From a virus, in UHGV virus genome UHGV-0133287: DNA of 45,624 bases. One strand, written 5' to 3'. Of the stretch, positions 2,114 through 45,624 are shown in pieces. A program made the position numbers and the translations under genes. Position 1 is the first letter of the stretch. Each line of letters opens with the position of its first letter. Below the pieces are notes generated by a model. It did not search any database and was not told where the DNA came from. It saw nothing but the letters and a program-made list of their open reading frames with translations.

Positions 2114-3230
2114 CCTCTAACCCCGCATACTGGCAATTTATATTTCTCTCTCTGGCGACCTGCGTCTCTCCAACTACAGTAAATACAGGACTTGATATTT
2201 CTAATCTTTTAGCCCCGGCATTTTTTAAACGTTGAATAATTTCATCTGGATTTATATCTCTTCCCATAACCGAACGTTGCCATTGTTTATACTCATCAAG
2301 AGCTTTCTCAACCTCACTTTGAATTAACGTTGTTCTGTTTTTGTCCGATGAGTTAATCCAGTATTTAATTATTATATCGTATTCAATGCTCTCTGGTTTC
2401 TTAACAAGAACTTTATCTGTGAATGGTCGAATATTAGTTGCAGAGAGAACGCTATTTATCTGCTCTAATAGTTCATCAGAAGGTATATCCCCGTTCTCTA
2501 ACAAAGAACGGATTTCTACAGTTCCGGGCGATGGTGTATATACATTCACATCTTTTATATTCTGATTGGCTGTTCTTGTCCAATATTTATAAGAATCCTC
2601 CGGCCCTGCTGTAGACAGTTTTTCCGGCGACAGTTTTATTCTTTCAGCATAATTATCATCTGACTCTGTATCAGCACCAGAATTAGATGTTGTTAGATTC
2701 CTTACGCTGGAAACATACGGCAACGGAGTCACCAACTCGTTTATTTGCCCAGGTAAAAACCCATTCCCCGATAAGCCAGGTATAACAGCATATCCTGAGA
2801 CTGTACCAACTGTTTTCCCAGCTGGTATTTCCAACAAAACATCTGTTTGGAAAATAACACTATTTCCAGTTGAAATTTGAGTGCCAGCAGGTATTGTATA
2901 TATCCCCGATAATTTTGTTGACAGATTAAACTCAAATGTAGTCAAGGCAGATTGAGCTTCCAGCCTAGGCGTATCCGTCAGATAGCCTATATGGTCGAGA
3001 TATTCACCCCCACCATATGTAAGAAGGTTTTGTTTTGCAGAAAAATCGATAGCTTTTCTTTGCTGTATAATAATCTCACACAATGACAAGATGAATAATC
3101 TACGTGGATCAGCAGGTGCTAATGTTTCACCTGTTATACTCTCAAAAGCCCTGATTGAACGAGTTGTTATATCAGTCGGGTTAGAATCTGCGAAAGTAAT
3201 ATCTGGCAAACCACCGCGCGGCAACGTCAT
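2106..3230 (-). CDS. baseplate protein J-like
   Basis: 374-aa ORF downstream of the gp25/W-like gene, translationally overlapping its neighbours; size and position fit the baseplate wedge protein J family. Confidence 0.6.
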   Translation of the reverse strand: MTLPRGGLPDITFADSNPTDITTRSIRAFESITGETLAPADPRRLFILSLCEIIIQQRKAIDFSAKQNLLTYGGGEYLDHIGYLTDTPRLEAQSALTTFEFNLSTKLSGIYTIPAGTQISTGNSVIFQTDVLLEIPAGKTVGTVSGYAVIPGLSGNGFLPGQINELVTPLPYVSSVRNLTTSNSGADTESDDNYAERIKLSPEKLSTAGPEDSYKYWTRTANQNIKDVNVYTPSPGTVEIRSLLENGDIPSDELLEQINSVLSATNIRPFTDKVLVKKPESIEYDIIIKYWINSSDKNRTTLIQSEVEKALDEYKQWQRSVMGRDINPDEIIQRLKNAGAKRLEISSPVFTVVGETQVARERNINCQYAGLEDG

Positions 3231-12581: not shown

Positions 12582-13625
12582 TTAAACCACCTTAGCCACC
12601 AGATAGGCGTCAGCCACGCCAGGATTAGGCAGTGGAGACGACTTCATGGCAACATAACGACCTCCCGGCTTACGAGATACCCAAGTATCTGGAACTCGTG
12701 GTGACTCAACAATCGTCAGAGTCTTTTCAGCTTCATCTACAAGCTCTACAGCACCATACAACATAGTTCCCCGCCCCGGAGAGCCAAGGAGAATCTTATC
12801 CTCCGGCACTAATGGTTCTGGTTTTCCTGTTTTATCACTAAGAATAAGTTCGTCGTAACCATAAAAATCGAGCCCCTCAATATTACCATAATGAGTAACT
12901 CCTTCTTCTAAGTCCTCTGGCTTAATATACCCAAACTCTTTTCGACGATTATCAAGATATTTAGTTACTGCTTCATTTTTAACGAATGCATCAACAACTT
13001 TTGCACCCATTACAGCAGTACGAGGTGTAAAACCTGATGTTAGTGATACCCGGCGCTTCCAGTTGCGGATATTGACCAACGGATCTGATTTTGCGGCACT
13101 CCATAAATCATCACCTGTCAGTTCAAGGTATGGTTTATCACCTTCCTCTTCAGGCCAAAAATAAACTGTGTCATCTACTCCTTCACCAACAATATCAACC
13201 TGTCCCGTAAACAAGACCTGTGCACACATCCATTCTTCACGGCGGTTAACCATTTCATCAAGCTCAAGCAAATCTTTACCTAATTGCTCGGCGGCTCGTT
13301 CTGCTGGCGATTTTGCGTTGTAAATATTCTCACCCGGAAGCCTGTTTAAAAGCAGTTCGGCTGTTGTTACCAAATCAGGTGCAACAAGTGGTGGCTCCAG
13401 AGTTCTCGTTACAAAGCCGCGTCGCTCAACGGTTTTTGAGCCAAAACCTTTACCAACAAACGGAGCCATAGTACGGCCACCGCGAACAAAATCCAGATCA
13501 ACTTTCTTTGTATTAAAGGTCTGAACACCAGGGAAAAAGGTACGAAGAAGAAAACGACGAGCCTTGAAATTCTGAATAACAGGCTCAAGCATTGTACGTC
13601 GTTCAAAAATATCAATATTCGGCAT
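12582..13625 (-). CDS. major capsid protein (lambda gpE-like)
   Basis: 347-aa ORF opening MPNIDIFERRTMLEPVIQNF..., preceded by decoration-like and protease genes in lambda-type order. Confidence 0.75.
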   Translation of the reverse strand: MPNIDIFERRTMLEPVIQNFKARRFLLRTFFPGVQTFNTKKVDLDFVRGGRTMAPFVGKGFGSKTVERRGFVTRTLEPPLVAPDLVTTAELLLNRLPGENIYNAKSPAERAAEQLGKDLLELDEMVNRREEWMCAQVLFTGQVDIVGEGVDDTVYFWPEEEGDKPYLELTGDDLWSAAKSDPLVNIRNWKRRVSLTSGFTPRTAVMGAKVVDAFVKNEAVTKYLDNRRKEFGYIKPEDLEEGVTHYGNIEGLDFYGYDELILSDKTGKPEPLVPEDKILLGSPGRGTMLYGAVELVDEAEKTLTIVESPRVPDTWVSRKPGGRYVAMKSSPLPNPGVADAYLVAKVV

Positions 13626-13645
13626 AAAAATACGACCTCTTTATA

Positions 13646-14029
13646 TTATGCAGATGGATTTTGTTGTGCGGTATTAAGGAATATTCCAACCTTCCGGCAA
13701 GCCATATATACATCGGCAACTTTTGCTGATTCAGGAAGGATAACCGCATGTGCATTGAACATTCCGGTCAGCCATGCTGTTCCGACTTGCGCTGAATCAG
13801 TCGCATCAATATTGTGTTGAGCGATACAATACGGTTCTTTTGCCTCCCCTTCACCAGAGAGATTTATTGGCGCCACAGTGACAACATTTGTTGTCTGATC
13901 AATACTGACAAAAGCAAGTAACTCACCCCGTTTTACTTTACCGCTGGCAAGTTTAATACTTGTTGGAATTGCTGGCATACCACCAGAAATAATCAGATTA
14001 TCTGGTTCAAATGAAAAAGACTCTCGCAT
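13646..14029 (-). CDS. head decoration protein (gpD-like)
   Basis: 127-aa ORF between the protease and major capsid genes, the position and size of lambda gpD. Confidence 0.5.
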   Translation of the reverse strand: MRESFSFEPDNLIISGGMPAIPTSIKLASGKVKRGELLAFVSIDQTTNVVTVAPINLSGEGEAKEPYCIAQHNIDATDSAQVGTAWLTGMFNAHAVILPESAKVADVYMACRKVGIFLNTAQQNPSA

Positions 14030-14038
14030 AAACTCACC

Positions 14039-15127
14039 TTAATTTTTATCGCGGTTTTTAAATACTGACCCAATAACATTTTTTACTGCTTCAGCCTGTT
14101 TGTTGCCGTTGTTTTCTGGTTGATTAACATCAACTGAATCATTCACCTCACTTGCGTCTTCTTGCCGTTGATTAAGAAAGTTTTTGTTACGCGCTCGCTC
14201 TGCATTCATAATTTCCAAAGCAAGTTCAGCCGCAGAAACTCCTGTTTTGAATTTTGCATTCTTAACCAGGTCGTCATGACCAGGAATCACGCTATTCTCG
14301 ATTGTTTCAATGCGCTCGCGTTCTGATTTAACGCCCTCGTCTTTACCAGCATTAAAAACCTGATTGTATAATTCTGGATATTTATTTTTTAATTCATCAA
14401 GAGTCACAATATCGTCCTCATTTTGTTCATTTGATTCAGTAGATAACTCATTTTTATTTTGCGGCAACTTTGCGAGTGAATCAGGTAATTTTGAAAACCT
14501 TGATGCTTCAAAAGTTATTCCATTAAGCGAAAGCATCCCTTCCTTTATAGAAGCGGATAAGCGCATTGGTTTTTCAACTTCGTCAGCAAATCCAAGCTCT
14601 ACAGCCTCTTCTGCATTTAGCCATGTTTCCTGATCCATTAGTTCAATTAATTTATCCTCAGAAAGCCCTGTTTTCTCCTTATATGCAGATAAAATACTAT
14701 TGCGTATCTTATCCATCATCTCAGCAATATCACGCAATTCATCCGCATCGCCAGCAGCAAATGTCCACGGATTATGGATCATCATCATAGCATTAGATGG
14801 GATAATAATTTTATCACCCGCCATTGCAATAATAGTTGCAGCCGATGCAGCAATCCCGTCGATATAAATCGTAATATTCGCCTTATGACGCTTTAATGAT
14901 GAAAGAATAGCTTGAGCAGTAAAAACAGACCCACCATAACTATTAATTTTTACGTTGATAGTATTTGATGAAATATCCTTTAATTTATTAACTATGTCAG
15001 AAGAAGAAACCTCATCAAATTCACCAATATACCCGTAAATTAAAAGTTCAGCCGGAGAGTCATCTTCACCCGTGCTATTTTTTATTTCCCACCAATTAGG
15101 CATCATCAGTCTCCATATTTTGTTCAT
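14039..15127 (-). CDS. prohead protease (ClpP/S49 family) with scaffold-like C-terminus
   Basis: 362-aa ORF with a ClpP-like core (INSYGGSVFTAQAIL...IDGIAASAATIIAMAGD) and a charged C-terminal half; sits between portal and capsid genes. Confidence 0.7.
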   Translation of the reverse strand: MNKIWRLMMPNWWEIKNSTGEDDSPAELLIYGYIGEFDEVSSSDIVNKLKDISSNTINVKINSYGGSVFTAQAILSSLKRHKANITIYIDGIAASAATIIAMAGDKIIIPSNAMMMIHNPWTFAAGDADELRDIAEMMDKIRNSILSAYKEKTGLSEDKLIELMDQETWLNAEEAVELGFADEVEKPMRLSASIKEGMLSLNGITFEASRFSKLPDSLAKLPQNKNELSTESNEQNEDDIVTLDELKNKYPELYNQVFNAGKDEGVKSERERIETIENSVIPGHDDLVKNAKFKTGVSAAELALEIMNAERARNKNFLNQRQEDASEVNDSVDVNQPENNGNKQAEAVKNVIGSVFKNRDKN

Positions 15128-25260: not shown

Positions 25261-25377
25261 CGGGTTATCTCCGGTTTAACCAGGGCGGGTATCGCTCGGT
25301 TTCGGGTATAACCATAGGAAATTTTTTCCCATCCGTAAAGCGCTTTTTATATAAATCTATAATTATATAATTCTATG
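25261..25377 (-). promoter_or_regulatory. conserved promoter/leader cassette, copy A
   Basis: About 115 bp nearly identical to 32437-32557 and 41314-41430. In the minus-strand sense it carries an AT-rich palindromic block (TATATAATTATAGATTTATATAAA), a TTTAC(G/A)-N17-TATGGT promoter-like pair, then a ~45-nt leader ending GGAGATAACCCG-ATG. Confidence 0.5.
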
Positions 25378-25960
25378 CCACTTGCCAGAGAGCATCATGC
25401 AACTGGATACCTCCATTGCACTGGTTGCCCCAGCCATGCCAGCCATCAGGTAAATCACCGCGAGCAAACAGCTCAATACGAGGAACATCACCTAACAGCT
25501 TTACCAGCTTGTCACGGACCACATCAGGCTTCCGAGAATGCTCCAGACGAGGCGATGTAAACGACTGAATGATCCCCGCATCAAGACGGGTCGGCAGTTT
25601 GCCTTTTACCGCAAACAAGCAATCTTCACTGTTTGCACGAGTCATATGCCCCATCCCCATCACCAGCTTATCTGGTTGTCGGCTACCACATTTGTTCCAT
25701 GTGAAGCCCTTCATGGTCATCAGCCTGAATCCCCATGCTTTAACCACCAGCAACGCTTCTTCTGGCTGAGTCGGAACCCACCACATGGCCAACAAACACG
25801 ATTCAGGATTAGCAAGCTGCCAGACAGGAATACGAGCAATCTCCTCAGCTTTCATCGTTGGATACTTAAAACCAGCTCCACGATTCCCATCCTTACACTT
25901 GTCTTTGTATTCCCAGGGGGGATCTGCATAAATCAGATTAAACAATGCAATTGCCTCCAT
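25373..25960 (-). CDS. DNA N6-adenine methyltransferase, MT-A70 family
   Basis: 195-aa ORF with N-terminal LIYADPPWEY (the DPPW catalytic motif). Confidence 0.7.
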   Translation of the reverse strand: MEAIALFNLIYADPPWEYKDKCKDGNRGAGFKYPTMKAEEIARIPVWQLANPESCLLAMWWVPTQPEEALLVVKAWGFRLMTMKGFTWNKCGSRQPDKLVMGMGHMTRANSEDCLFAVKGKLPTRLDAGIIQSFTSPRLEHSRKPDVVRDKLVKLLGDVPRIELFARGDLPDGWHGWGNQCNGGIQLHDALWQVA

Positions 25961-26267: not shown

Positions 26268-26343
26268 TGGTGGCCCCTACCGGATTTGAACCGATGACCG
26301 TGCGATTATGAGTCGCCTGCTCTAACCACTGAGCTAAGGGGCC
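26268..26343 (-). tRNA. tRNA with CAU anticodon (Met or lysidine-type Ile2)
   Basis: 76-nt minus-strand sequence GGCCCCTTAGCTCAGTGGTTAGAGCAGGCGACTCATAATCGCACGGTCATCGGTTCAAATCCGGTAGGGGCCACCA folds by hand into a cloverleaf: 7-bp acceptor stem, GCTC/GAGC D-stem, CUCAUAA anticodon loop, TTCAAAT T-loop, encoded CCA. The 5' half resembles E. coli ileX as I recall it. Confidence 0.8.
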
Positions 26344-31368: not shown

Positions 31369-32436
31369 TCAGGCTTTCAATAGCGATTCTTTCAGATATC
31401 GGGCATCAGCCAGGGCGTTTGGAGTAATCTTGCGAACCCATGCATTACGGGTTGGACTCCACTTAAAGGCGCGTGATTTAAGCAGCGAACGAATGTTTGC
31501 CTCTGGTTTGCCAGGGAAATAAAACAGGATGCGGTTATCCTCTGGATCTATCTCCATAGAAAAGCCGTCGTATTCTTCGCGCTGTGCTCCTGTTACAGAC
31601 TTGACCGATTCAAGCTCCTTAATACGGCTCTGTAGTCGTTTGATTTCGGCGTTATTGTTGCTCAGTGCGTATGAAGGGAATCCGATGCGCCCACAGAAAT
31701 CTCCGGCCAGTAACTCTTTGGCTTCGCTTTCTGTAAACCTGAGATCGATTAATGCAGAAAGCTGCTGTAATTGGTCTTTTTTGTATTTGCGAATGGCCTT
31801 ATTTGCGGCCTTCATTTTGACGTGTGACTTCATGCAGCCTTGCAGCTTACGAAGCAACTTAAATAGCGCATCAGGATCATCAGACGAAATTCCATTACGA
31901 CCAACACCTGCGGCTTTGCTCTCGTAGTGTGATGCTTTACTTTCGCATTCAACAAACGCTTTTCTGAATAACGCATCAGCTTTAGACAAACGGCGGCGAT
32001 GGCCTTTCGCGCTATAATGGTCAACTAAAATCGGCTGGCCTAACGGGATCACATCCAACAGGTCATGCGCTCGCTTATGCGCTACCGCACCTTCTTTTCT
32101 GGCTTTTTCTGCACGAGCAATATATCGGGCAAGACGCGCGTTCTGGCGTTCCTGATAGGTGTTTACGTAATCATCTCCGCGCTGCTGCTGTTCAAGCCAT
32201 GCTTTGCGCAGATCTTCTGTTACGTCCACCAGCTCCGCAGGGATACAACCAGTTTGGGCTTCATAAGAGTAACCATCCTCATAGATACGCCCATCGTCTT
32301 CAACAAAGAAAAAGGTTTCGTGCTCATCGCTTTTGACCATACGACCATTAACATGGCGTAATAGGTAGCCAGTATCAGTGCTTAACAGGCTGTTAGGGTT
32401 GTTGATCCAGTCAGAAATAATTACTTGTTTATTCAT
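31369..32436 (-). CDS. hypothetical protein, first gene after leader copy B
   Basis: 355-aa ORF with a charged coiled-coil-like central region; possibly a DUF3560-like phage/plasmid protein (uncertain). Confidence 0.4.
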   Translation of the reverse strand: MNKQVIISDWINNPNSLLSTDTGYLLRHVNGRMVKSDEHETFFFVEDDGRIYEDGYSYEAQTGCIPAELVDVTEDLRKAWLEQQQRGDDYVNTYQERQNARLARYIARAEKARKEGAVAHKRAHDLLDVIPLGQPILVDHYSAKGHRRRLSKADALFRKAFVECESKASHYESKAAGVGRNGISSDDPDALFKLLRKLQGCMKSHVKMKAANKAIRKYKKDQLQQLSALIDLRFTESEAKELLAGDFCGRIGFPSYALSNNNAEIKRLQSRIKELESVKSVTGAQREEYDGFSMEIDPEDNRILFYFPGKPEANIRSLLKSRAFKWSPTRNAWVRKITPNALADARYLKESLLKA

Positions 32437-36389: not shown

Positions 36390-37058
36390 ATGGAGTCTCG
36401 ACAAATGACTATCTCTGTAGGTATTTTCAACGGAAAAGGCGGCGTAACCAAATCAACAATTGCCCGTGCTTTAGCAGTTGCTTATGCAAAGGCTGGCTGG
36501 AATGTATGCCTGATCGATATGGATGTGCTTAACGGAACGGTAACGCGTTGGGTACAACGCAGAATGGCCAACAATATCGAACCAGCAATCGCGGCGCAGC
36601 CGTGCGGCACACCATCACAAGTCCAGAAAATCATCGAATCAGAAGTATACGACCTGGTTATCGTCGATGGCGGTGCCTACGCATCTGAATCAGTACCGAA
36701 GCTATCTGAATTTCTGGATATGGTTATTTTGCCAACCCGATTCTCTACCGATGACCTGGAAACCACCGTTAACACTGCTCACGGCATCGTTAAAAAGGGT
36801 GTACCAATCAAGAAAATTTGCATGGTGTTTTCCGGCGCGGCTGAAAACGAAGCTGACTATATTGAAGCCCAAGAGTACCTGGCTAATACGCCATACTTTG
36901 TTGTCGATAAGTACATTCCCCACAAGCCAGCTCTGAGCAAAGCTCAGGATAAGGGCTTAAGCCTCATTGAGTGCTCATACGTTGCACCACGCAAAAAGGC
37001 AGACGACGTTATTCAGGGGATTATCAACCAGCTTGAGGCTCTGACTACTGCCGCGTAA
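36390..37058 (+). CDS. parA: ParA-family partition ATPase (small ParF-like)
   Basis: 222-aa ORF with a deviant Walker A (GKGGVTKST). Alternative start at 36405 (MTISVG...). Confidence 0.8.
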   Translation: MESRQMTISVGIFNGKGGVTKSTIARALAVAYAKAGWNVCLIDMDVLNGTVTRWVQRRMANNIEPAIAAQPCGTPSQVQKIIESEVYDLVIVDGGAYASESVPKLSEFLDMVILPTRFSTDDLETTVNTAHGIVKKGVPIKKICMVFSGAAENEADYIEAQEYLANTPYFVVDKYIPHKPALSKAQDKGLSLIECSYVAPRKKADDVIQGIINQLEALTTAA

Positions 37059-37562: not shown

Positions 37563-37586
37563 ATAAAAAAGGCCCCCGAAGGGGCC
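37563..37586 (-). terminator. intrinsic terminator (minus-strand; convergent transcription stop)
   Basis: GGCCCC-CGAA-GGGGCC hairpin preceded on the plus strand by an A run, giving a U run on the minus strand. Confidence 0.45.
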
Positions 37587-38456
37587 TAATCGCTACTTGC
37601 TGCTAATGTTTATCGTCACATTCAGAGCGTTATCAGTAATCTTCCAACCCTCCCCATGTGGCGTAAACAAAGCTCCAGTAACAACGATAAAAATACACAT
37701 ACAGTATTTTTTCATTGTGTGGCCCTTACAGGCCGTTTCACGGCATCTCCACCGACGAAAATGACGCGAGAGCAAGCACTCCGCTTGTGCTTGCGTGTAC
37801 GGCAAGTGGATGATCCTTTCCTTAAAGTCGGTGCCCGGGTGCGAATCGGCGAAAAGGCCCCAAGCCATATTACACGTCCTCGCCTTCATAATGAAGGAAT
37901 AACAATTGCTTTTATTACATGTAATTACATCCGAAGAAGTTAAAAAACTTCATTCTGCATGAACTAAGGAACTAAATTTCTTTATATGAATAGTGGACTA
38001 TTCACCTCAGTTGAGTAAGAATAGATACGCCGCTTGTGCTTGCGTGGTTGTTTACACAACGACGTTATGCTGAAAGGACCGCGAATCCGATCAGCACGAA
38101 AGAACCGTCCTCAATAGGGCGGTTTTTTTGTTTCTGCCTACCAATAAACCCACGCTATGTGGTTGTCTCTGTTAAAATCCCGCCGTATTGACATGAATGC
38201 GCCATTGGTGGACACTTTCCGAGCCGTAGCAAAATCTACGGTCGGGATTGGCGTCCCGATTGCACAATGGCGCATACCGCGTTAGCGGTTTTTTTATGCG
38301 TAAAGCACTGCTACACCCGAATTATGGTGGGGCGTGCGGGGGCGGAGAAATCCGCGCCGGTTTGTCATTGTGCCGGTTACGCCAACCCTGTACGTCTCAC
38401 CACCATATTGATTGGCGTCATTGGTGGTGATAGTTCCTTTAATCGGAGATATCACA

Positions 38457-38648
38457 ATGACAAACCTACCCCATGACTATTACGTCAACCTCGTAAAGAT
38501 CCTTCTCAAGAAAGCCTCATATGCCGATAAATTCCGCCTGGCTGAAATCATCGAGCGCGAAGCTATGCGCATCGCCAGCAACGATAACGCTGTTTCTGAC
38601 GCAAAAATCTCCCTCGTAACCAAAGTAGTTATGGGAGGTGCAAAATGA
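38457..38648 (+). CDS. small ORF translationally coupled to antirepressor (icd-like position)
   Basis: 63-aa ORF (ATG 38457, GGAG RBS) whose stop overlaps the start of the next gene (ATGA); the ORF track shows a longer version starting 38412. Confidence 0.35.
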   Translation: MTNLPHDYYVNLVKILLKKASYADKFRLAEIIEREAMRIASNDNAVSDAKISLVTKVVMGGAK

Positions 38649-39787
38649 AAACGCTTCCGACCGTTAACACCCTACAGCCTATCCTGCATAACCAGATCCC
38701 CGTTATCACTAGTGAACTTCTGGCGCAGTTATACGGAACAAAAATCAAAAACATTTCTGATAACTTTCTGAACAACACGACGCGATTCGTAGCCGGAAAG
38801 CATTACTTTAAAATTGAAAAAAACGAATTACGCGAGTTCAAGAACAGACCCGAAACAATCGGGTTAGTTGGTAAAAATGCCCGCTCCCTAATTCTCTGGA
38901 CCGAACGCGGGGCTGCACGTCACGCTAAAATGCTCGAAACCGATCAGGCGTGGGATGTATTCGAACGGCTGGAAGACTGCTATTTCAGCCAGAACGCGCA
39001 AACGGCCGCGACCGTAACCGTCTCGCCAAACAATGCTCGTGAGGTTGTCGATACGCTCAACGCCAAACCGATGTTTTACATTAAGGTGTGCAATAACGAG
39101 CCACTCACAACCTCAGCCGATGTTGCCCAGGCATTCAGCACCACAAACAATTCCATCGTTATGGCCATCGATGCGTTACGCATTCCTCGCACAGCTGCGG
39201 CGCGTCATTTCTTTAAAGAGCAACGACCGTTGGAAGGAAGCGACCGCGAAATAACAATCTATCGCATGACAAAAGACGGATTTACCTTGCTCATGGAGAG
39301 CATCGACGGTCCCGGCGTGAAAGATATCAAGCTGGCCTACATTGAAGCCTTTAACGCTATCAGCAGCGTGTTAAAAACACAGTACGAGCGCGATCTGGCT
39401 AAACGACTGTACCAGGAAAAAACGATTATCCGCGCGGCAACAGAGCATAATCGGCTATTAACGGAACCGAACTACAGGAAGGAACTAATCAAGGAGTTTG
39501 ACAAGGCAACAGGGAAAACCAAAGCGGCGCTAAATCTGCCAGCAATGACTCAGGAAAATGTGATATCAGCCTTACTTCTTGATCTACTCAGAAACGCCAG
39601 AGCACTTATCAGCTTTGACGAAAACCTGAATCCTCAACTCAAGCTACTACCACCGACAGGCAAAGTAGTCGACCAGGCTGATCACAACAGCATACTCAGC
39701 GTACTGGATGCAAACCTGCCAACCAGGACACTACAGGATCTGATAAAAACATGTGCTGATAAGCTGGCACAGAAAAGCAGACCATAA
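38645..39787 (+). CDS. putative antirepressor / phage regulatory protein
   Basis: 380-aa ORF whose N-terminal ~110 aa (ITSELLAQLYG...GAARHAKMLETDQAWDVFERLEDCYF) resembles anti-repressor N-domains; preceded by an about 700-bp structured leader. Confidence 0.45.
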   Translation: MKTLPTVNTLQPILHNQIPVITSELLAQLYGTKIKNISDNFLNNTTRFVAGKHYFKIEKNELREFKNRPETIGLVGKNARSLILWTERGAARHAKMLETDQAWDVFERLEDCYFSQNAQTAATVTVSPNNAREVVDTLNAKPMFYIKVCNNEPLTTSADVAQAFSTTNNSIVMAIDALRIPRTAAARHFFKEQRPLEGSDREITIYRMTKDGFTLLMESIDGPGVKDIKLAYIEAFNAISSVLKTQYERDLAKRLYQEKTIIRAATEHNRLLTEPNYRKELIKEFDKATGKTKAALNLPAMTQENVISALLLDLLRNARALISFDENLNPQLKLLPPTGKVVDQADHNSILSVLDANLPTRTLQDLIKTCADKLAQKSRP

Positions 39788-41476: not shown

Positions 41477-41776
41477 TCAGATGTTAAACGCTATTCTTTT
41501 TCCTGTGGGAAGCTCAACATCCAGGCTTAATTTGCCTCCCATAGCTTCAACGTAACGCTTTAATGTCGCCAGCTTTAAATCATTTCCGCGCTGCTCCAAC
41601 TTTGTTACTGCTGGCTGACTAATACCCATCGCCTCAGCAACCTGTTTTTGTGATAACTGGAGTTCTTCACGCATCATCTGCAAGCCGACCTCAAGAATCA
41701 TCTCATCTGCCATTTCTTTAATTCGCGCCTGGCTTTCCGGTGAACGGCTGGCAATCACCTCATCTAATGTTCTCAT
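41477..41776 (-). CDS. HTH-type antitoxin (HigA/XRE-like)
   Basis: 99-aa ORF with HTH LSQKQVAEAMGISQPAVTKLEQ; start overlaps the upstream toxin-like gene stop. Confidence 0.55.
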   Translation of the reverse strand: MRTLDEVIASRSPESQARIKEMADEMILEVGLQMMREELQLSQKQVAEAMGISQPAVTKLEQRGNDLKLATLKRYVEAMGGKLSLDVELPTGKRIAFNI

Positions 41777-42129
41777 TACTTGCTCTCCAGTGTGTTCAGA
41801 TGTGCTGCAAACTCATCCTCAGCTATACGCACCAGTTTTTTATAAAACCGCTTATCGTTACTTTTGTCTCCTGCACAAAGAACGATAGCCCGGCGAATCG
41901 GATCGAACGCATAAAAGGCTCTTATAGGACGGCCAGAAAACTGAACGCGAAGCTCTTTCATATTTTTGTACCGAGAACCTTTTACGGTATCGGCATATGG
42001 CCTGGGTAACTCAGGCCCGTAAACCTGTAGATTTTTCAAATCAGCCAAAACCTTTTCCTGAAGAGCGTCTTCTTGCTCATTTAGCCAGTCGTCAAATCGC
42101 TGGCTAAAAAGTACCGTCCACATGATCAA
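41776..42129 (-). CDS. RelE/ParE-superfamily toxin (Gp49/HigB-like)
   Basis: 117-aa ORF upstream of and overlapping the HTH gene, the toxin-first order of HigB-HigA-type modules; sequence pattern resembles Gp49-like killer proteins. Confidence 0.5.
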   Translation of the reverse strand: MIMWTVLFSQRFDDWLNEQEDALQEKVLADLKNLQVYGPELPRPYADTVKGSRYKNMKELRVQFSGRPIRAFYAFDPIRRAIVLCAGDKSNDKRFYKKLVRIAEDEFAAHLNTLESK

Positions 42130-42658: not shown

Positions 42659-42954
42659 ACATCTGTTTTGTTATCAATGAAGATTAACCCTAACCCAGCG
42701 AAGTAACACAGCAGCGCCCAGGCTGCATACGGAATGCTGGATCTGGATGTGGACTCCTTTAACATCTGCCAGTTGCGAACATTGCGACTATCTTTTAAGC
42801 CTAGTTTTTTGGCTAACTGCGAGCCGCTCATTCCGGTCAGGCCAATGACTGCCCGAACTTCTCCACATGTAGGAGATTCCCATTCATCCGCTTTTTTTAA
42901 ACAAGCCGGATTCAACATTTTTAAAACAGTATCTTTATCCATAACCATCTCCAT
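42655..42954 (-). CDS. hypothetical protein with C-terminal hydrophobic segment
   Basis: 99-aa ORF; possible HTH (GMSGSQLAKKLGL) and a C-terminal TM-like stretch. Confidence 0.3.
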   Translation of the reverse strand: MEMVMDKDTVLKMLNPACLKKADEWESPTCGEVRAVIGLTGMSGSQLAKKLGLKDSRNVRNWQMLKESTSRSSIPYAAWALLCYFAGLGLIFIDNKTDV

Positions 42955-43435
42955 TTATTATATCTACGATGGTAGGAAATCTTTTCCTATGTGGCAATAG
43001 AAATTTACTACATTGCGTATAAGACAAGTTTTCTATGTCTAATAGGAAATGATGTTTCTTACGTTTTATCGCGTTCTGATGGCTACTGTGTGCGTATTTA
43101 TCGACGTTTATTGATAAGGCTCGCCTCTTCCTCCTGCAAAGCCCGGCCGTAGGCCTTATTTCGGCCTTATATAAATTGATTTTGTATAGTTCGAAACGCG
43201 CCGTTTCGAAAAGGATGATCAGGCTGCTCCATGCCTCCGGCAAGTGCCGGAGGAGGTATATTTGAGCGTAGCGACTCGAACCGGCGCGAGCTTTAGCTCG
43301 CTGCAAGGGCGAACATATTCACAGGCAAAGCCTGCGTAAGTTAAATAAAGAAAGTCTTAATAAAAGAAAGTGATTTTGCATTTATTTGTTTAGTGCATCT
43401 ATTATAAAAAACCATTTGCATATACATATCAAAAC

Positions 43436-43444
43436 TGTGGATAA
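43436..43444 (-). promoter_or_regulatory. DnaA box in candidate replication origin
   Basis: TGTGGATAA, the reverse complement of consensus TTATCCACA, about 145 bp downstream of the repA stop within AT-rich sequence. Confidence 0.5.
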
Positions 43445-43585
43445 CTTTATTAGCCGATGCCTGTAAAGGCGATATTTTTGCTGTGTTCAGGTTTAGAGAA
43501 AATTAATTTAGATTGTTTTTTGAACAGATATTTTATTGCGACGTAGATAATCCTCCGGTAAAACCGGATTCATCATTCAGGTGGG

Positions 43586-44563
43586 TTAATGTTGGAGTGA
43601 TTTCCAAGTCTTTCTTAACCTGTTATAACGCTGCTCAACGAGGGATCGTAAATATGCAAGGTCAGCTCCAGGATACATGCCATCAGCAAATTCCTGGCTA
43701 ACCTCTCTAGTGATTTGATGACGAAGTTCGGCCTCTCCCTTTTCCCGAACAAGACGCGCAGCTCTCTCCGCTGCTTTCTGTTTTGCCTTTATCTCTCTGG
43801 CCGTCTTCCTCTGACGCCATACATTCTCCATCTGCTCCTGAATAACAATACGCTTATAATCAGCCTCCGTTATCGCTTTTTTAAGCCGTTCGCTATTCTT
43901 CGCATTGAAGTAATTAAGTTTCTGGCTAACCGCACGTCTCCATGCTTGTTCAGTAATACCAACGGTTTCCAGCAGTTGATCACGAATCTCTATTTTCGCT
44001 GGCCAATACTGTTTATTCACCCGATCCCAGCGACGTTCATAATCAATAAAACCTAACGCTTTCAGTTGCGACAACGCCCTTGTACAGCGCGTTATAGACT
44101 TGTTCCCAGCTTCGGATACGGTAGACAGACCGCAAAAATCAGCCAACGCCTCAGCACTGGCCAGAACCCGCTTAGAAATGATGTTTACATGGTGCAAAAT
44201 CGCAGCAATCACAGCATTAATCGCCCGACGACGATGCTCGTTTATCCGGCGTTTCCGCTCTGACGGTTGATTAACGTAGAACGCAACCTCACACGTAAGA
44301 TCACGACCATTAATGCGCTGTAAAGCATCAGATAACACCAGCGGCAGCTTGTGCGTATGGTGCTTTGGAGGCTGGAACTCCGGCGACAAATTACAAACGT
44401 AAGCTGAACGTAGAGACGGCATTGGTCTATCCATATGTTCGCTCTTGCGTCCACGGAAAACCAACGTATAATGGGAGTTGTCGAGGCGCCCATGGTTAAT
44501 TGTTGGTTTTCCGTGGATGTCGCAAGAAGCCCGCAGATTTATCTGCGGGCTTTTTGTTTCCAT
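43586..44563 (-). CDS. repA: replication initiator RepA (IncFII RepA1-like)
   Basis: The central region (GLSTVSEAGNKSITRCTRALSQLKALGFIDYE) resembles IncFII RepA1 (...SITRATRALTFLSELGLITYQTEYD...) as I recall it. The true start may be the internal ATG at 44434 (MDRPMPSL, about 283 aa), because the first 43 codons overlap a putative antisense RNA and hairpin. Confidence 0.75.
   Translation of the reverse strand: METKSPQINLRASCDIHGKPTINHGRLDNSHYTLVFRGRKSEHMDRPMPSLRSAYVCNLSPEFQPPKHHTHKLPLVLSDALQRINGRDLTCEVAFYVNQPSERKRRINEHRRRAINAVIAAILHHVNIISKRVLASAEALADFCGLSTVSEAGNKSITRCTRALSQLKALGFIDYERRWDRVNKQYWPAKIEIRDQLLETVGITEQAWRRAVSQKLNYFNAKNSERLKKAITEADYKRIVIQEQMENVWRQRKTAREIKAKQKAAERAARLVREKGEAELRHQITREVSQEFADGMYPGADLAYLRSLVEQRYNRLRKTWKSLQH
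44479..44560 (+). ncRNA. candidate CopA-like antisense RNA to the repA leader
   Basis: Plus-strand promoter -35 TTGCGT (44445-44450), 16-bp spacer, -10 TATAAT (44467-44472), then about 80 nt ending in a perfect 12-bp hairpin AAGCCCGCAGAT-TT-ATCTGCGGGCTT plus TTTGTTT (44527-44560), antisense to the repA 5' region. Confidence 0.5.
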
Positions 44564-44598
44564 ATCTGGTCGCTTTCCAACCAGACACCCACAATCAT

Positions 44599-44615
44599 AA
44601 CCACGTTACGTGGTT
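44599..44615. promoter_or_regulatory. 17-bp palindrome upstream of repA
   Basis: AACCACGT-T-ACGTGGTT perfect inverted repeat in the repA promoter-proximal region. Confidence 0.3.
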
Positions 44616-44744
44616 TTAAGAGAACTCTACCACAACACTTTCGGTCATGCACGAAGTCTCTCACTGATCGAACGATAATCCACCAGTAAAAGGATCTAAA
44701 TTGGATCTCGTTTTGCGAGCATCATACTACTGGCCTAACTCCAG

Positions 44745-45299
44745 TCAATGATTCCCAGCCGGAAACCTGCGGTAAAGCGTGGATAAGGTAACATCGAAGA
44801 TAATCGCTATCCGCTTACGTGAAACACCATTCGCAATAAGCCTTCCGATCTGTTCCCATTGCTCTGGTGCCAGCTTTGAGCGGCGTCCTCCTATCCTGCC
44901 GTTAGCCCTTGCCACCGCCAATCCTGCACGCGTTCTTTCAATCATATTTTCCCGCTCCATCTCTGCGACTGCACTCAGCATCGTGTAGGCAAAGCGGCCA
45001 ATTGAAGTGCTAATTTTTATCCCTTCCGTAATCGAAATAAACTCAATGTCGTTTGATAAAAAATGGTTAAGTAAATCAACAAGATGAATCAGAGAACGCC
45101 CCATTCGGTCCAGCTTCCAGACAATAACCGTATCGCCCGGTCGTAACACCTTCAGTAGCTTATCAAGTCCTGGTCGTTTTGATTTAGCACCGGATATTTT
45201 ATCTTCAAAAATCCGGTCACATCCTGAACTCCTGAGCGCCTCCAGTTGTAATTCCAAATTCTGGTCAAAAGTTGACACCCTCGCATAACCATATTGCAT
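44745..45299 (-). CDS. serine recombinase, DNA invertase (Gin/Hin/Cin/Pin family)
   Basis: 184-aa ORF opening MQYGYARVSTFDQNLELQLEAL..., with the conserved catalytic Ser region and a C-terminal HTH; strongly resembles Gin. Confidence 0.85.
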   Translation of the reverse strand: MQYGYARVSTFDQNLELQLEALRSSGCDRIFEDKISGAKSKRPGLDKLLKVLRPGDTVIVWKLDRMGRSLIHLVDLLNHFLSNDIEFISITEGIKISTSIGRFAYTMLSAVAEMERENMIERTRAGLAVARANGRIGGRRSKLAPEQWEQIGRLIANGVSRKRIAIIFDVTLSTLYRRFPAGNH

Positions 45300-45308
45300 A
45301 CTTTCTAA

Positions 45309-45624
45309 ACCACGATTGTTGCTAAAAGCGGGAAAAAATATCGTTCAGACGACACAGAGGCAATTCGCAAAAACCTCGGTTTGCAGGAAACGATAAACAA
45401 GGCTTCTGGCGCATTACAGAAAAACCAGAACGGCGCAGATATTCCTGGAAAAGATACCTTCACCAAAAATATTGGTGCCTGCCGCGCATATAGCGCATGG
45501 GTGGATATTGGTGGCGATAGTCAGGTCTGGACAACTGCGCAATTTATTTCGTGGCTGGAGAGTCAGGGGGCATTTAACCATCCTTACTGGATGTGCAAAG
45601 GCTCATGGGCTTATGCAAATAATA
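45309..45624 (+). CDS. alternative tail-fibre C-terminal segment, start-less (runs off window end)
   Basis: Open frame with no ATG/GTG start from the stop at 45306-45308 to the window end; encodes ...AIRKNLGLQETINKASGALQKN..., paralleling the ...EYLGLQETVNRAGNAVQKN... junction of the fibre gene at the window start on the opposite strand. Confidence 0.55.
45367..45392. other. gix/hix-like invertase crossover site
   Basis: GCAAAAACC-TC-GGTTTGCAGGAA, an inverted copy of the 125-150 site; 68 bp from the invertase start codon. Confidence 0.5.

Follow-up and report, generated by a model that had tools for sequence, protein, structure and literature searches.

The closest described systems are the plasmid replicons controlled by RNAI or Inc RNA, i.e., IncL/M (repBA of pMU604), IncB (pMU720) and IncI-alpha (repZ of ColIb-P9), which share the RepA superfamily NF040977 with the replicon described in this study, and the IncFII plasmids R1 and R100 (copB, copA, tap, repA, oriR), whose RepA belongs to the same Pfam family. 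To our knowledge, the classical replicons of this family (IncFII, IncB, IncI and IncL/M) all use an antisense RNA encoded in the repA leader. Phage-plasmids are recognised as common carriers of genes between the phage and plasmid pools, and as far as we know their copy control is understood in only a few cases, such as P1 and N15.

The window analysed here is the whole 45,624-nucleotide stretch of the virus genome UHGV-0133287, and its positions 42955-44744 are a theta-type plasmid replicon. As in the IncL/M, IncB and IncI replicons, the candidate antisense gene lies in the repA leader with its -10 element in the homologous position, where the mRNA strand reads AUUAUA, the terminator hairpin is preceded by the same A-run, and the origin is located downstream of repA. 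Unlike in those replicons, the leader has neither the UUGGCG target loop nor the CGCCAA antisense loop, there is no conserved leader peptide of the repB/repY type overlapping the repA start, and no conserved pseudoknot partner was found; recognition and termination are assigned to separate stem-loops, and the promoter of the antisense RNA lies within a long leader hairpin, P4. The nearest classical relative found was of the IncL/M type (locus L007), with a RepA 62.5% identical to that of the window and a leader that passes the Rfam model PK-repBA. As compared to IncFII R1/R100, an antisense RNA would likewise act against the leader and the origin likewise follows repA, whereas copB, tap and a match to the CopA covariance model are missing and RepA fails the strict IncFII model. 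The antisense RNA of the window, as far as its sequence tells, appears to be a rebuilt version of the classical copy-control RNAs.

A plasmid replicon on a tailed phage

The host element is a phage-plasmid, i.e., an E. coli phage of ~47 kb that has a P2-type tail and lives in plasmid form. It encodes tail, baseplate, terminase and portal genes, and it is kept outside the chromosome. Among 5,426 complete E. coli genomes it was located at 82 places in 71 genomes (~1.3%, E. coli ATCC 25922 among them), all on plasmids of ~46-52 kb. In ATCC 25922 the plasmid is NZ_CP009073.1 (48,488 bp), with the replicon at 12888-14680. None of the places was chromosomal, so that the plasmid maintenance of the prophage proposed in the earlier note, against which an integrated lysogen would have spoken, is borne out. 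PLSDB contains 62 circular, non-mobilizable records of the element, phage records with 98.7% identity exist, and it has also been deposited as the Yersinia phages vB_YpM_39, 41 and 44, which were propagated on Y. pestis. The ParA gene (36390-37058) and the toxin-antitoxin module, a HigB/HigA-like Gp49/HTH_3 pair (41477-42129), which the same note had taken as signs of plasmid upkeep, are both present. A P1-type C4 antisense RNA is found beside an antirepressor-like gene of the same element.

P1/P7 (IncY), SSU5 and N15 are likewise temperate tailed phages kept as low-copy plasmids with an initiator of their own, and they share ParA partition and toxin-antitoxin genes with this element. The RepA family of P1 is unrelated to the RepA described here; the P1/P7 RepA acts with iterons and copy control is by iteron handcuffing, whereas here it would be by antisense RNA. 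No iteron or direct-repeat array was found in the replicon region. Literature searches with the phage and plasmid names, with phage-plasmid combined with IncFII or antisense RNA, and with ATCC 25922 returned no description of this replicon. Plasmid pSLy3 is a member of the SSU5 supergroup and unrelated to this element.

The initiator gene repA is located on the minus strand at 43586-44422 and encodes 278 amino acids, its start being set from relatives. The protein matched PF02387 with 149.8 bits (cutoff 22.9; profile positions 2-272 of 275) and the NCBIfam model NF040977, RepA_IncFII_LM, with 232.2 bits (cutoff 70; positions 1-266 of 266), i.e., over the full domain and above both curated cutoffs. 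The strict equivalog TIGR03474 (incFII_RepA) gave 79.3 bits against a cutoff of 446.9, and annotated IncFII RepA proteins aligned to it by tblastn with 31-41% identity over 29-45% of the protein. It is therefore an initiator of the IncFII/IncL-M superfamily, for which the previous label "IncFII-like" was too narrow. In PHROGs this RepA is of "unknown function" and in phage records it is a "hypothetical protein".

A protein-based search of genome contigs found no relative. Scanning genome and metagenome contigs with a 20-mer of 18 specified bases gave many matches, of which roughly half were fortuitous, had no RepA in the neighbourhood and were rejected (L033-35, L039, L041, L043-45, L051, L053-54 and L058-64). 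All features listed in the earlier note were found, in place or within a few bases, and what raises the replicon features above chance is conservation and covariation in relatives rather than motif counts in the window.

That the origin lies directly downstream of repA is well supported; in this order it comprises a hairpin after the stop codon, a DnaA box, an AT-rich stretch with ATGCA repeats and a hairpin block rich in GC, all given here on the minus strand. The hairpin TCCGGT..ACCGGA directly past the repA stop (43552-43569) shows a compensatory change in relatives, from CCGG/CCGG to CCAG/CTGG, and is followed by the 13-mer CAAAAAACAATCT (43510-43522). In a true IncFII replicon a hairpin of this kind and the identical 13-mer are likewise present, at a similar distance. 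The DnaA box TTATCCACA (43436-43444), which had been reported in AT-rich DNA downstream of RepA, is the sole perfect box in the 45.6-kb window. It sits 142 nt past the repA stop, as compared to 176 nt in a true IncFII plasmid, adjoins the most AT-rich stretch (24% GC) and is kept at the same place in six of eight relatives, and such a box with AT-rich DNA directly after repA is the origin arrangement of the IncFII type. The AT-rich core (43340-43430) is a candidate for the RepA-binding and unwinding regions. Three ATGCA-containing blocks, ATGCAAATGG (43412-43421), ATGCAC (43393-43398) and ATGCAAAATCAC (43370-43381), are conserved in all relatives, L007 included. The GC-rich block CGCCCTTGCAGCGAGCTAAAGCTCGCGCCGGTTCG (43277-43311) is also conserved in all of them, with compensatory changes in its hairpin, and also occurs in a Klebsiella plasmid with a RepA of 37% identity. 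Its role may be that of a priming element (ssi/G-site-like).

The repA leader and its candidate antisense RNA

It is well supported that transcription of repA starts from a promoter at 44748-44721 and crosses a leader of ~290 nt which folds into four hairpins, P1-P4. The candidate promoter PrepA (TTGACT-16 nt-TATGAT, 44721-44748, minus strand) overlaps the last codons of an invertase gene and matches sigma-70 at 10 of 12 positions, better than any other site in the region; its motifs TTGACT and TATCAT/TATGAT are kept in L003, L004, L005 and L013 whatever the upstream gene. Just downstream, a pair of GATC sites (44693-44696 and 44704-44707) can be read from the sequence within the inverted repeat GGATC...GATCC, and the motif GATCC...GATCCTTTT is kept in L003, L004 and L005, with one copy in L013. 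P2 (44562-44588, minus strand) is a predicted 11-bp hairpin whose stem sequence is replaced, with pairing kept, in L003, L004, L005 and L013.

P4 (44443-44527, minus strand), identified by its inverted repeat, fold and covariation, is a long hairpin of the repA mRNA built from a 7-bp lower stem and a 16-bp upper stem. Its left internal loop varies, the inner helix is AUGGG/CCCAU, and the 13 nt of the apical loop, CGCCUCGACAACU, are invariant. The 3' arm of P4 finishes ~20 nt ahead of the repA AUG. In the predicted ensemble pairing of the arms is complete, and the apical loop is unpaired at 89%. The relatives fall into two leader clades: four pairs of P4 show compensatory changes in clade 1, and in clade 2 the same shape is made from an unrelated stem sequence. 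One stem pair splits on the strand it favours, being U-G in L003 (mRNA strand) and C-A in L004 (the other strand).

The putative antisense promoter (44445-44472, plus strand) lies inside the 3' arm and loop of P4, with the -35 element TTGCGT at 44445-44450, a spacer of 16 nt and the -10 element TATAAT at 44467-44472. The earlier note had called it strong; the site is present, but its strength was overstated, as the -35 element matches the consensus at three of six positions and a consensus promoter scan did not call the site. The evidence for this promoter is its conservation and not its consensus strength. TATAAT is invariant in all 23 distinct relatives from both clades, and the -35 element is TTGCGT with a 16-nt spacer in clade 1 and TTGCAT with an 18-nt spacer in clade 2. 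Another antisense promoter upstream of 44445, which would place the whole hairpin in the RNA, was rejected because there was no credible -10 element.

On the basis of fold, covariation and conservation, the antisense (counter-transcript) RNA would be ~80-83 nt long (44477-44559, plus strand), with its 5' end at 44476-44480. It is predicted to consist of the 8-nt single-stranded tail GUUGUCGA (99% unpaired in the predicted ensemble), a first stem-loop SL1 (44485-44521), and a terminator stem-loop SL2 with its U-tract (44522-44557; stem 44522-44537/44542-44557), in agreement with the ~80-nt unit ending in a hairpin and U-tract that had been noticed before. The 81-nt RNA folds with -41.1 kcal/mol (z = -6.7), and the layout of tail, SL1 and SL2, 80-89 nt in length, was the minimum-energy fold in all 19 sequences tested. 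In the alignment 99.4% of cells are paired and 3 pairs are changed on both sides. The terminator stem stays paired despite A-U to G-C replacements inside clade 1 and despite three pairs that differ between the clades; the two-clade covariance-model alignment placed SL1 of clade 2 as an insertion, and these between-clade counts cover the terminator only. SL1 and SL2 together contain five invariant G-U pairs, which on the opposite strand would be C-A mismatches and so tie the fold to the plus strand. For the run of A residues that precedes P3 on the mRNA strand, the simplest explanation is the U-tract of this plus-strand terminator. Judged by sequence, the unit has what defines a counter-transcript RNA, namely the opposite strand, a promoter of its own, a Rho-independent terminator, structure and conservation, and comparison speaks strongly for an antisense gene within the repA leader.

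The unit is kept in relatives whose RepA is only 34-86% identical, and the TATAAT and the 5' tail are invariant across the two leader clades, with RepA identity down to 60% and 34%. No part of the replicon is as well conserved as the leader segment encoding the RNA: identity is 87-90% in the P3-P4 segment, as compared to 62-76% for the repA coding sequence and 61-71% for the flanks. A covariance model built from clade 1 recovered all clade-2 copies on the right strand with ~34 bits, and neither L007 nor the IncFII locus L065 was matched by the model from this RNA. Since the sequences of a clade are close relatives, covariation inside either clade is modest, and the main signal is the contrast between the two clades.

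The apical loop of SL1 (44496-44510, plus strand) is hypervariable and is a candidate specificity (incompatibility) determinant. Among 16 distinct copies of the 1.8-kb replicon that are ~99% identical, 12 of the 20 columns at 44495-44514 vary, and the next densest window has 6. There are at least seven loop alleles, including TTAATTGTTGG and ATTGTTGTTGTTGG, with indels of 2, 3 and 5 nt; indels of 2 and 5 nt in near-identical copies exclude coding on either strand. In clade 2 the variable segment is likewise at the SL1 apex.

The name "CopA-like" given in the earlier note has to be dropped. CopA (RF00042), PK-repBA and PK-repZ gave nothing on either strand of 42900-44800, even with the limit relaxed to E<=10, the Rfam plasmid antisense and pseudoknot families as a whole had none at gathering thresholds in the whole window or at E<=10 in 42900-44800 on both strands, and the UUGGCG/CGCCAA loop of such RNAs is absent, as described above. 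In the positive control L007, CopA scored 34.3 bits and PK-repBA 49.3 bits. Weak matches to Thr_leader and CsrC were driven by the terminator only and were rejected.

It could be argued that there is no antisense RNA, that P2-P4 act only in cis on the repA mRNA as an attenuator or stabiliser, and that TATAAT and the U-tract are by-products. We consider this unlikely. The leader does fold far better than shuffled controls (z = -8.6 and -9.95, the latter for P4), P4 covaries on the mRNA strand, and the weak -35 element missed by the scan speaks for this reading as well; however, a by-product would hardly leave TATAAT in the P4 loop invariant in both clades though the neighbouring bases vary, nor produce five invariant G-U pairs that fit the plus strand alone. 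Both clades and L007 share the A-run that precedes P3, and in L007 this run forms the terminator tail of an identifiable antisense RNA. The hypervariable loop, apparently under diversifying change, better fits a trans-acting specificity determinant, and, as stated above, the classical replicons that share this RepA family all rely on an RNA of this kind.

Hairpins, leader peptides and the start of repA

The inverted 12-mers at 44451-44462 and 44506-44517, read previously as possible target or operator structures, are part of a perfect 16-nt inverted repeat (44450-44465/44502-44517) that extends to ~23 bp, and this repeat is the stem of the covarying mRNA hairpin P4 and not an operator. The P4 arms change in a compensatory way in clade 1 and are wholly replaced in clade 2 while the shape stays constant, so P4 behaves as an RNA helix rather than a sequence-specific protein site. 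It is thus distinctly improbable that this repeat and the palindrome at 44599-44615 are protein operators on repA transcription, serving RepA autorepression or a phage repressor, even though both are perfect in the window, and conserved arms with a variable centre, as the palindrome has, are a typical operator pattern. The upstream neighbour is a Hin/Cin-type invertase gene, or in relatives a tail-fibre assembly gene or others, and not a copB-like regulator. A 20-mer in the P4 loop is invariant across both clades, which would suit a protein site, and it could be conserved for a reason other than pairing, e.g., as a protein-binding site. The palindrome itself, P1 (44599-44615, minus strand), is indeed perfect, 8+1+8 nt in the form AACCACGT-N-ACGTGGTT with T at the centre in the window. 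Its arms are kept in clade 1 with G-U wobble changes and its centre varies, and because compensatory changes are absent a role in RNA and a role as a protein site are indistinguishable; P1 is either a leader hairpin or an operator, and an operator role for P1 alone is possible.

No copB repressor gene, as in the IncFII organisation, was found upstream of repA, and there is no small ORF at 44564-44745. A conserved leader peptide coupled to repA (tap, repY or repB) was not found either, as no ORF has a conserved stop relative to the repA start; among the positive controls, L065 carries an annotated tap and L007 an ORF ending in GTGA at the repA start. The upstream AUG at 44434 is in the repA frame in the window and L013 and in the +1 or +2 frame in L003, L004, L005 and L027. 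Leader peptides starting from the conserved AUGGA or from the loop AUG 44493 were rejected, since frame and stop are not conserved and clade 2 is without the loop AUG. An IncB-type pseudoknot, in which the P4 loop would pair close to the start codon, was also rejected: UUGUCG inside repA pairs with the loop in the window and is not conserved in relatives.

The true start of repA is most likely ATG 44422 (MPSLRS..., 278 aa) rather than ATG 44563, from which the earlier note had read a RepA1-like initiator; the ORF 43586-44563 (minus strand, 325 aa) exists and matches Pfam IncFII_repA with E=1.3e-43, but was over-extended by 141 nt. That the 325-aa ORF is the real RepA, with 44435-44563 as its N-terminal extension and the conservation as coding constraint, is hardly credible, although the ORF is open in the window and RepA is annotated as 325-326 aa in many RefSeq records, since the Pfam match begins at residue 52, relatives with 59-86% identical RepA have only 274-284 aa, and ATG 44563 is missing in L003, L004, L005 and L013 and shifted out of frame by 2- or 5-nt indels in the ~99% identical L014, L037, L038 and L042. 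Judging from these sequences, the first 43-47 codons of the long ORF are non-coding. The N-terminal extension of RepA in RefSeq is spurious and hides the control region.

Proposed copy control and its meaning

Taken together, we put the probability at about 0.7 that this is a plasmid-state (lysogenic) replicon whose copy number is controlled by an antisense RNA acting through the repA leader, including the proposed switch. In the proposed mechanism, a constitutive promoter within P4 would drive the ~80-nt antisense RNA on the strand opposite to repA, composed of the free 5' tail, SL1 with its variable apex and the terminator stem-loop SL2. This RNA would serve as a copy-number sensor because its level tracks gene dosage. 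The first contact would be between the invariant 5' tail and the invariant unpaired apical loop of P4; the variable SL1 apex would pair with the variable internal loop of P4, and the duplex would next extend across P3 and the 5' arm of P4. With the 5' arm occupied, the freed 3' arm, which starts with CGUUGG, may refold on the repA start codon and reduce translation, which is the most speculative step. RNase III cleavage of the duplex may contribute. Variation of the SL1 loop would define which relatives cross-inhibit each other, i.e., incompatibility.

The switch was modelled by forcing the antisense-bound stretch to be unpaired and recomputing the fold, with the mean pairing probability of the repA start region as readout. 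The predicted pairing rose from 0.42 to 0.75 in the window, from 0.36 to 0.60 in L003, from 0.55 to 0.87 in L004 and from 0.37 to 0.87 in L005. The effect was weak in L013 (0.46 to 0.56) and in clade 2, where pairing rose by ~0.1-0.18, and L017 did not show it. The partner of CGUUGG differs (CCAAUG, CCAGCG or UCAACG) with pairing kept, and the changes in this alternative helix are one-sided only. In clade 2 an analogous alternative helix is predicted over the Shine-Dalgarno region. 

Incompatibility with IncFII plasmids is not expected, because the control RNAs are without similarity. A further reading, which we hold only tentatively and regard as somewhat doubtful, is that the antisense gene and P4 form a portable copy-control cassette, distinct from the CopA/Inc-RNA design, in which the SL1 loop sets the incompatibility groups. 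In such a cassette the inhibitor promoter would be part of the target hairpin, with the 3' arm of that hairpin serving also as an anti-start-codon element, and the cassette would have passed between three initiator arrangements or have persisted while these diverged: the RepA type of the window, a RepA of 34% identity, and an ORF of 158 aa made of a RepA fragment and coupled to repA. If so, the fast-evolving SL1 loop would partition co-circulating phage-plasmids, much like phage immunity regions.

These results overturn nothing, as antisense control is expected for this initiator family. Defining the antisense gene would allow RepA annotations to be corrected and would provide a new family for Rfam-type resources, and the SL1-loop alleles may be usable as a typing marker for these elements. 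The replicon may also serve as a compact system for studying how control of the IncFII/IncL-M type can be rebuilt when UUGGCG loop, leader peptide and pseudoknot are all missing.

A replicon carried by a phage-plasmid

The element is a phage-plasmid, as follows from its plasmid-only places in complete E. coli genomes, its phage genes and its genes for ParA, a toxin-antitoxin pair and a CI-like repressor, the last also encoded in the window. In the database comparison, 62 plasmids from E. coli, E. fergusonii, Salmonella and Klebsiella, all circular, non-mobilizable and ~46-52 kb in size, matched the 1.8-kb replicon region (42955-44744) at 98.6-99.5% identity, and the match was just as close in three deposited phage genomes (Yersinia phage vB_YpM_39, 41 and 44). 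Tail-fibre, baseplate, terminase and portal genes are present in the matching plasmid and phage records. The region was found in 71 of 5,426 complete E. coli genomes, where all 82 places were on plasmids and none on the chromosome, and these records bear out the episomal maintenance of the prophage proposed in an earlier note. Carriers include a 48,488-bp plasmid of ATCC 25922. The ParA-like gene and toxin-antitoxin module of the same proposal were confirmed as a ParA ATPase (36390-37058) and a Gp49/HTH_3 pair (41477-42129).

Several other modules were observed in the window. An isrK-like RNA (38223-38295, 67 bits), a P1-type C4 antisense RNA (38320-38407, 75 bits) and, after the C4 RNA, an ORF6N+pRha antirepressor-like gene (38645-39787) form a block resembling the immI region of P1/P7. 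Rfam ryfA is matched over its full length at 37565-37862 (minus strand; 135 bits, gathering score 80), a short way downstream of the ParA gene; here the plasmid may have a further stabilisation module, of the small-RNA or small-toxin kind. A 355-aa ORF (31369-32436, minus strand) with DUF3560 and a PHROG primase-like C-terminal half is a candidate lytic-replication function separate from the plasmid replicon. The phage-plasmid also carries a tRNA-Met (CAT) gene (26268-26343, minus strand). A Hin/Cin-type DNA invertase (44745-45299, minus strand) adjoins the repA promoter, with a tail-fibre gene segment coming next (block 44745-45624), which suggests an invertible host-range switch; the relative L004 is without the invertase, and its promoter comes after a tail-fibre assembly gene. 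The first ~25 nt after the candidate repA promoter include two conserved GATC sites (44693-44707), and an MT-A70 adenine methyltransferase is among the phage's own genes (25373-25960); methylation could conceivably bear on repA expression.

The initiator and its origin

The ORF at 43586-44563 (minus strand), previously noted as a RepA1-like initiator, indeed matches Pfam IncFII_repA (E=1.3e-43), but only from residue 52, and its conserved start is at 44422 rather than 44563. The first 43-47 codons read as non-coding leader, because homologues, whether 81-86% or 59-63% identical, have 274-284 aa, their DNA lacks the ATG at 44563, and in four ~99% identical plasmids (L014, L037, L038 and L042) indels of 2 or 5 nt shift that ATG out of frame and leave the RepA body intact. 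The ATG at 44422 (MPSLRS...) is the only start kept in all relatives and gives 278 aa. The term IncFII-like is right at the superfamily level only, since in the profile search RepA passes NCBIfam NF040977 RepA_IncFII_LM (232 bits, cutoff 70) but scores too low for the strict IncFII equivalog TIGR03474 (79 bits, cutoff 447), and its 31-41% identity with annotated IncFII RepAs covers just part of the protein. The RepA annotation in RefSeq is already known, as are phage-plasmids as a class; many RefSeq records, such as NZ_CP009861.1, annotate the protein as 325-326 aa, PHROGs files it as phrog_7060 of 'unknown function', and the Yersinia phage records list it as hypothetical.

Read along the repA (minus) strand, the DNA downstream of repA holds a hairpin directly after the stop codon (43552-43569), kept via compensatory change, then the 13-mer CAAAAAACAATCT and, 142 nt after the stop, the expected DnaA box (43436-43444), which is the only perfect box in the window and adjoins 24% GC DNA. 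Three conserved ATGCA-containing blocks lie 3' of the box in this AT-rich DNA, followed by a small covarying hairpin and the GC-rich block CGCCCTTGCAGCGAGCTAAAGCTCGCGCCGGTTCG (43277-43311), whose hairpin shows compensatory changes. All these features are kept in relatives whose RepA is 60-86% identical. The true IncFII replicon of pEC404/03-3 shares with the window this type of hairpin after the stop and the identical 13-mer, and has a DnaA box 176 nt after repA. In IncFII plasmids (R1/R100), oriR follows repA and RepA acts in cis, and the layout seen here fits by analogy with that arrangement. The GC-rich hairpin block CGCCCTTGCAGCGAnnTAAAnnTCGCGCCGGTTCG is also kept on a Klebsiella KPC plasmid (L066, ~2630-2670) with a RepA 37% identical, and it may be a priming signal common to this initiator family.

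A candidate antisense RNA gene in the repA leader

On the plus strand, opposite the repA leader, a candidate promoter was present as described, with a -35 TTGCGT (44445-44450), a 16-nt spacer and a -10 TATAAT (44467-44472). It can hardly be called strong, because the -35 agrees with the consensus at 3/6 positions and a consensus scan missed the site; the case for an antisense gene therefore rests on comparison. The anticipated ~80-nt unit was found as the ~83 nt that follow TATAAT and end with a GC-rich hairpin and then UUUUUGUUU; its fold has -41.1 kcal/mol (z = -6.7).

Relatives were gathered through the RepA protein and through a conserved 20-mer, and were kept only if a RepA gene lay nearby. 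Their leaders form two clades. The window belongs to clade 1, together with relatives whose RepA is 60-100% identical; clade 2 has in common with clade 1 the exact 20-mer CCTCGACAACTCC[C/G]ATTATA, which spans the -10 and the antisense RNA's initial bases, but its stems show no sequence relationship to those of clade 1. Two arrangements follow the cassette (the antisense RNA gene with the P4 hairpin of the leader) in clade 2: in the L017 type, a RepA of just 34% identity; in the L008 type, a 158-aa RepA-fragment ORF and the repA (60% identical) to which it is coupled. This ORF (L008 2528-3004; also in L009, L012, L015, L020 and L052) lies between cassette and repA, with an ATGA overlap where repA begins. 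It is similar to the N-terminal half of a second RepA type (51% identical to the L017 RepA; NF040977, 46 bits) and seems to be a leftover of recombination, now in use as a long coupled leader ORF.

All 19 sequences folded (19/19) gave a plus-strand RNA of one layout and 80-89 nt, with an invariant single-stranded 8-nt 5' tail, G(U/G)UGUCGA, a stem-loop SL1 and a terminator SL2. In the clade-1 alignment, 99.4% of cells were paired and three pairs changed on both sides; the covariation score was reached by no shuffle, and slid registers fell to ~45-52% paired. The fold is specific to the plus strand by virtue of five invariant G-U pairs. Three terminator pairs changed by compensation between the clades; a few lineages and the contrast between the two clades account for most of the covariation. 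The clade-1 covariance model found every clade-2 copy on the right strand (~34 bits) and nothing in IncFII or IncL/M-type loci. The RNA-encoding P3-P4 segment is 87-90% identical where the repA coding sequence is 62-76% and the flanks 61-71% identical; coding on either strand is excluded because some indels in it are not multiples of three. These comparisons point to a candidate antisense RNA gene (RNA at 44477-44559) with a predicted product.

The repA-strand (minus) leader folds into four hairpins. P1 is the previously noted palindrome at 44599-44615, whose arms are kept and whose centre varies; it could equally be a leader RNA hairpin or an operator. In P2 (44562-44588) the stem sequence is replaced in relatives with pairing kept, and P3 is the complement of the antisense terminator. 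The inverted 12-mers (44451-44462 and 44506-44517), suggested earlier as possible target or operator structures, belong to the perfect 16-nt core of P4 (44443-44527, stem ~23 bp), and the covariation of this stem argues for an RNA helix instead of an operator. Compensatory changes occur at four P4 pairs in clade 1, the shape is kept in clade 2 with different sequence, and the inner helix covaries between clades (AUGGG/CCCAU versus AUCG/CGAU). The predicted antisense promoter lies inside P4: its spacer coincides with the 3' arm, its -10 is on the loop's right side, and transcription would start in the apical loop. The SL1 apex, opposite the variable left internal loop of P4, shows by far the densest variation among 16 distinct ~99% identical replicon copies (12 variable columns in 20, against 6 in the next window), with at least seven alleles, and the variable bases of clade 2 likewise lie there. 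A specificity (incompatibility) determinant would be expected to vary in this way, as do the copA alleles used for typing IncF plasmids.

Proposed inhibition and relation to known systems

The first contact would be made by the antisense 5' tail with the P4 apical loop, which is likely because the tail is 99% and its complement in the loop 89% unpaired in the modelled ensemble. Once the antisense RNA occupied its stretch of leader, the start of the P4 3' arm, CGUUGG, would pair with the repA start-codon region, to which it is complementary (CCAAUG in the window, CCAGCG in relative L003, UCAACG in L004 and L005). Forcing the antisense-bound stretch to stay single-stranded raised the start region's mean pairing probability from 0.42 to 0.75 in the window, 0.36 to 0.60 in L003, 0.55 to 0.87 in L004 and 0.37 to 0.87 in L005, but only from 0.46 to 0.56 in L013. 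Clade 2 has an analogous helix over the Shine-Dalgarno region with smaller shifts, and in the same kind of fold comparison L017 lacked the shift. We regard this modelled switch as a tentative step, somewhat short of an even chance; RNase III cleavage of the ~80-bp duplex would be an additional or alternative route.

The nearest classical relative, the IncL/M-type L007, has a RepA 62.5% identical and a contig with conjugation genes, including TrbC. Its leader (2860-3000) contains a long stem-loop with a UUGGCG loop and a short ORF ending GTGA at the repA start, and matches Rfam PK-repBA (49.3 bits, gathering score 45) and CopA (34 bits). In contrast, the leader of the window matched neither family in the Rfam scan and lacks UUGGCG, the relatives compared have no conserved leader peptide, and no copB gene was found upstream. 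Two different control designs thus serve closely related initiators. Both leaders have in common an A-run, the hairpin base and the -10 position, and the simplest reading of the sequences is that the window carries a rebuilt derivative of an IncL/M-type control region, in which the recognition loop, once part of the terminator hairpin, would now sit on a stem-loop of its own, with a long hairpin in place of the leader-peptide and pseudoknot device.

The antisense RNA is absent from Rfam, and our literature search found no description of this replicon or RNA. Of the CopA-like RNA suggested earlier, a conserved and covarying antisense unit in the repA leader stands, but membership in the CopA family does not. 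By analogy, the predicted RNA would work like CopA or RNAI but stands outside those RNA families, and it is readily testable in ATCC 25922.
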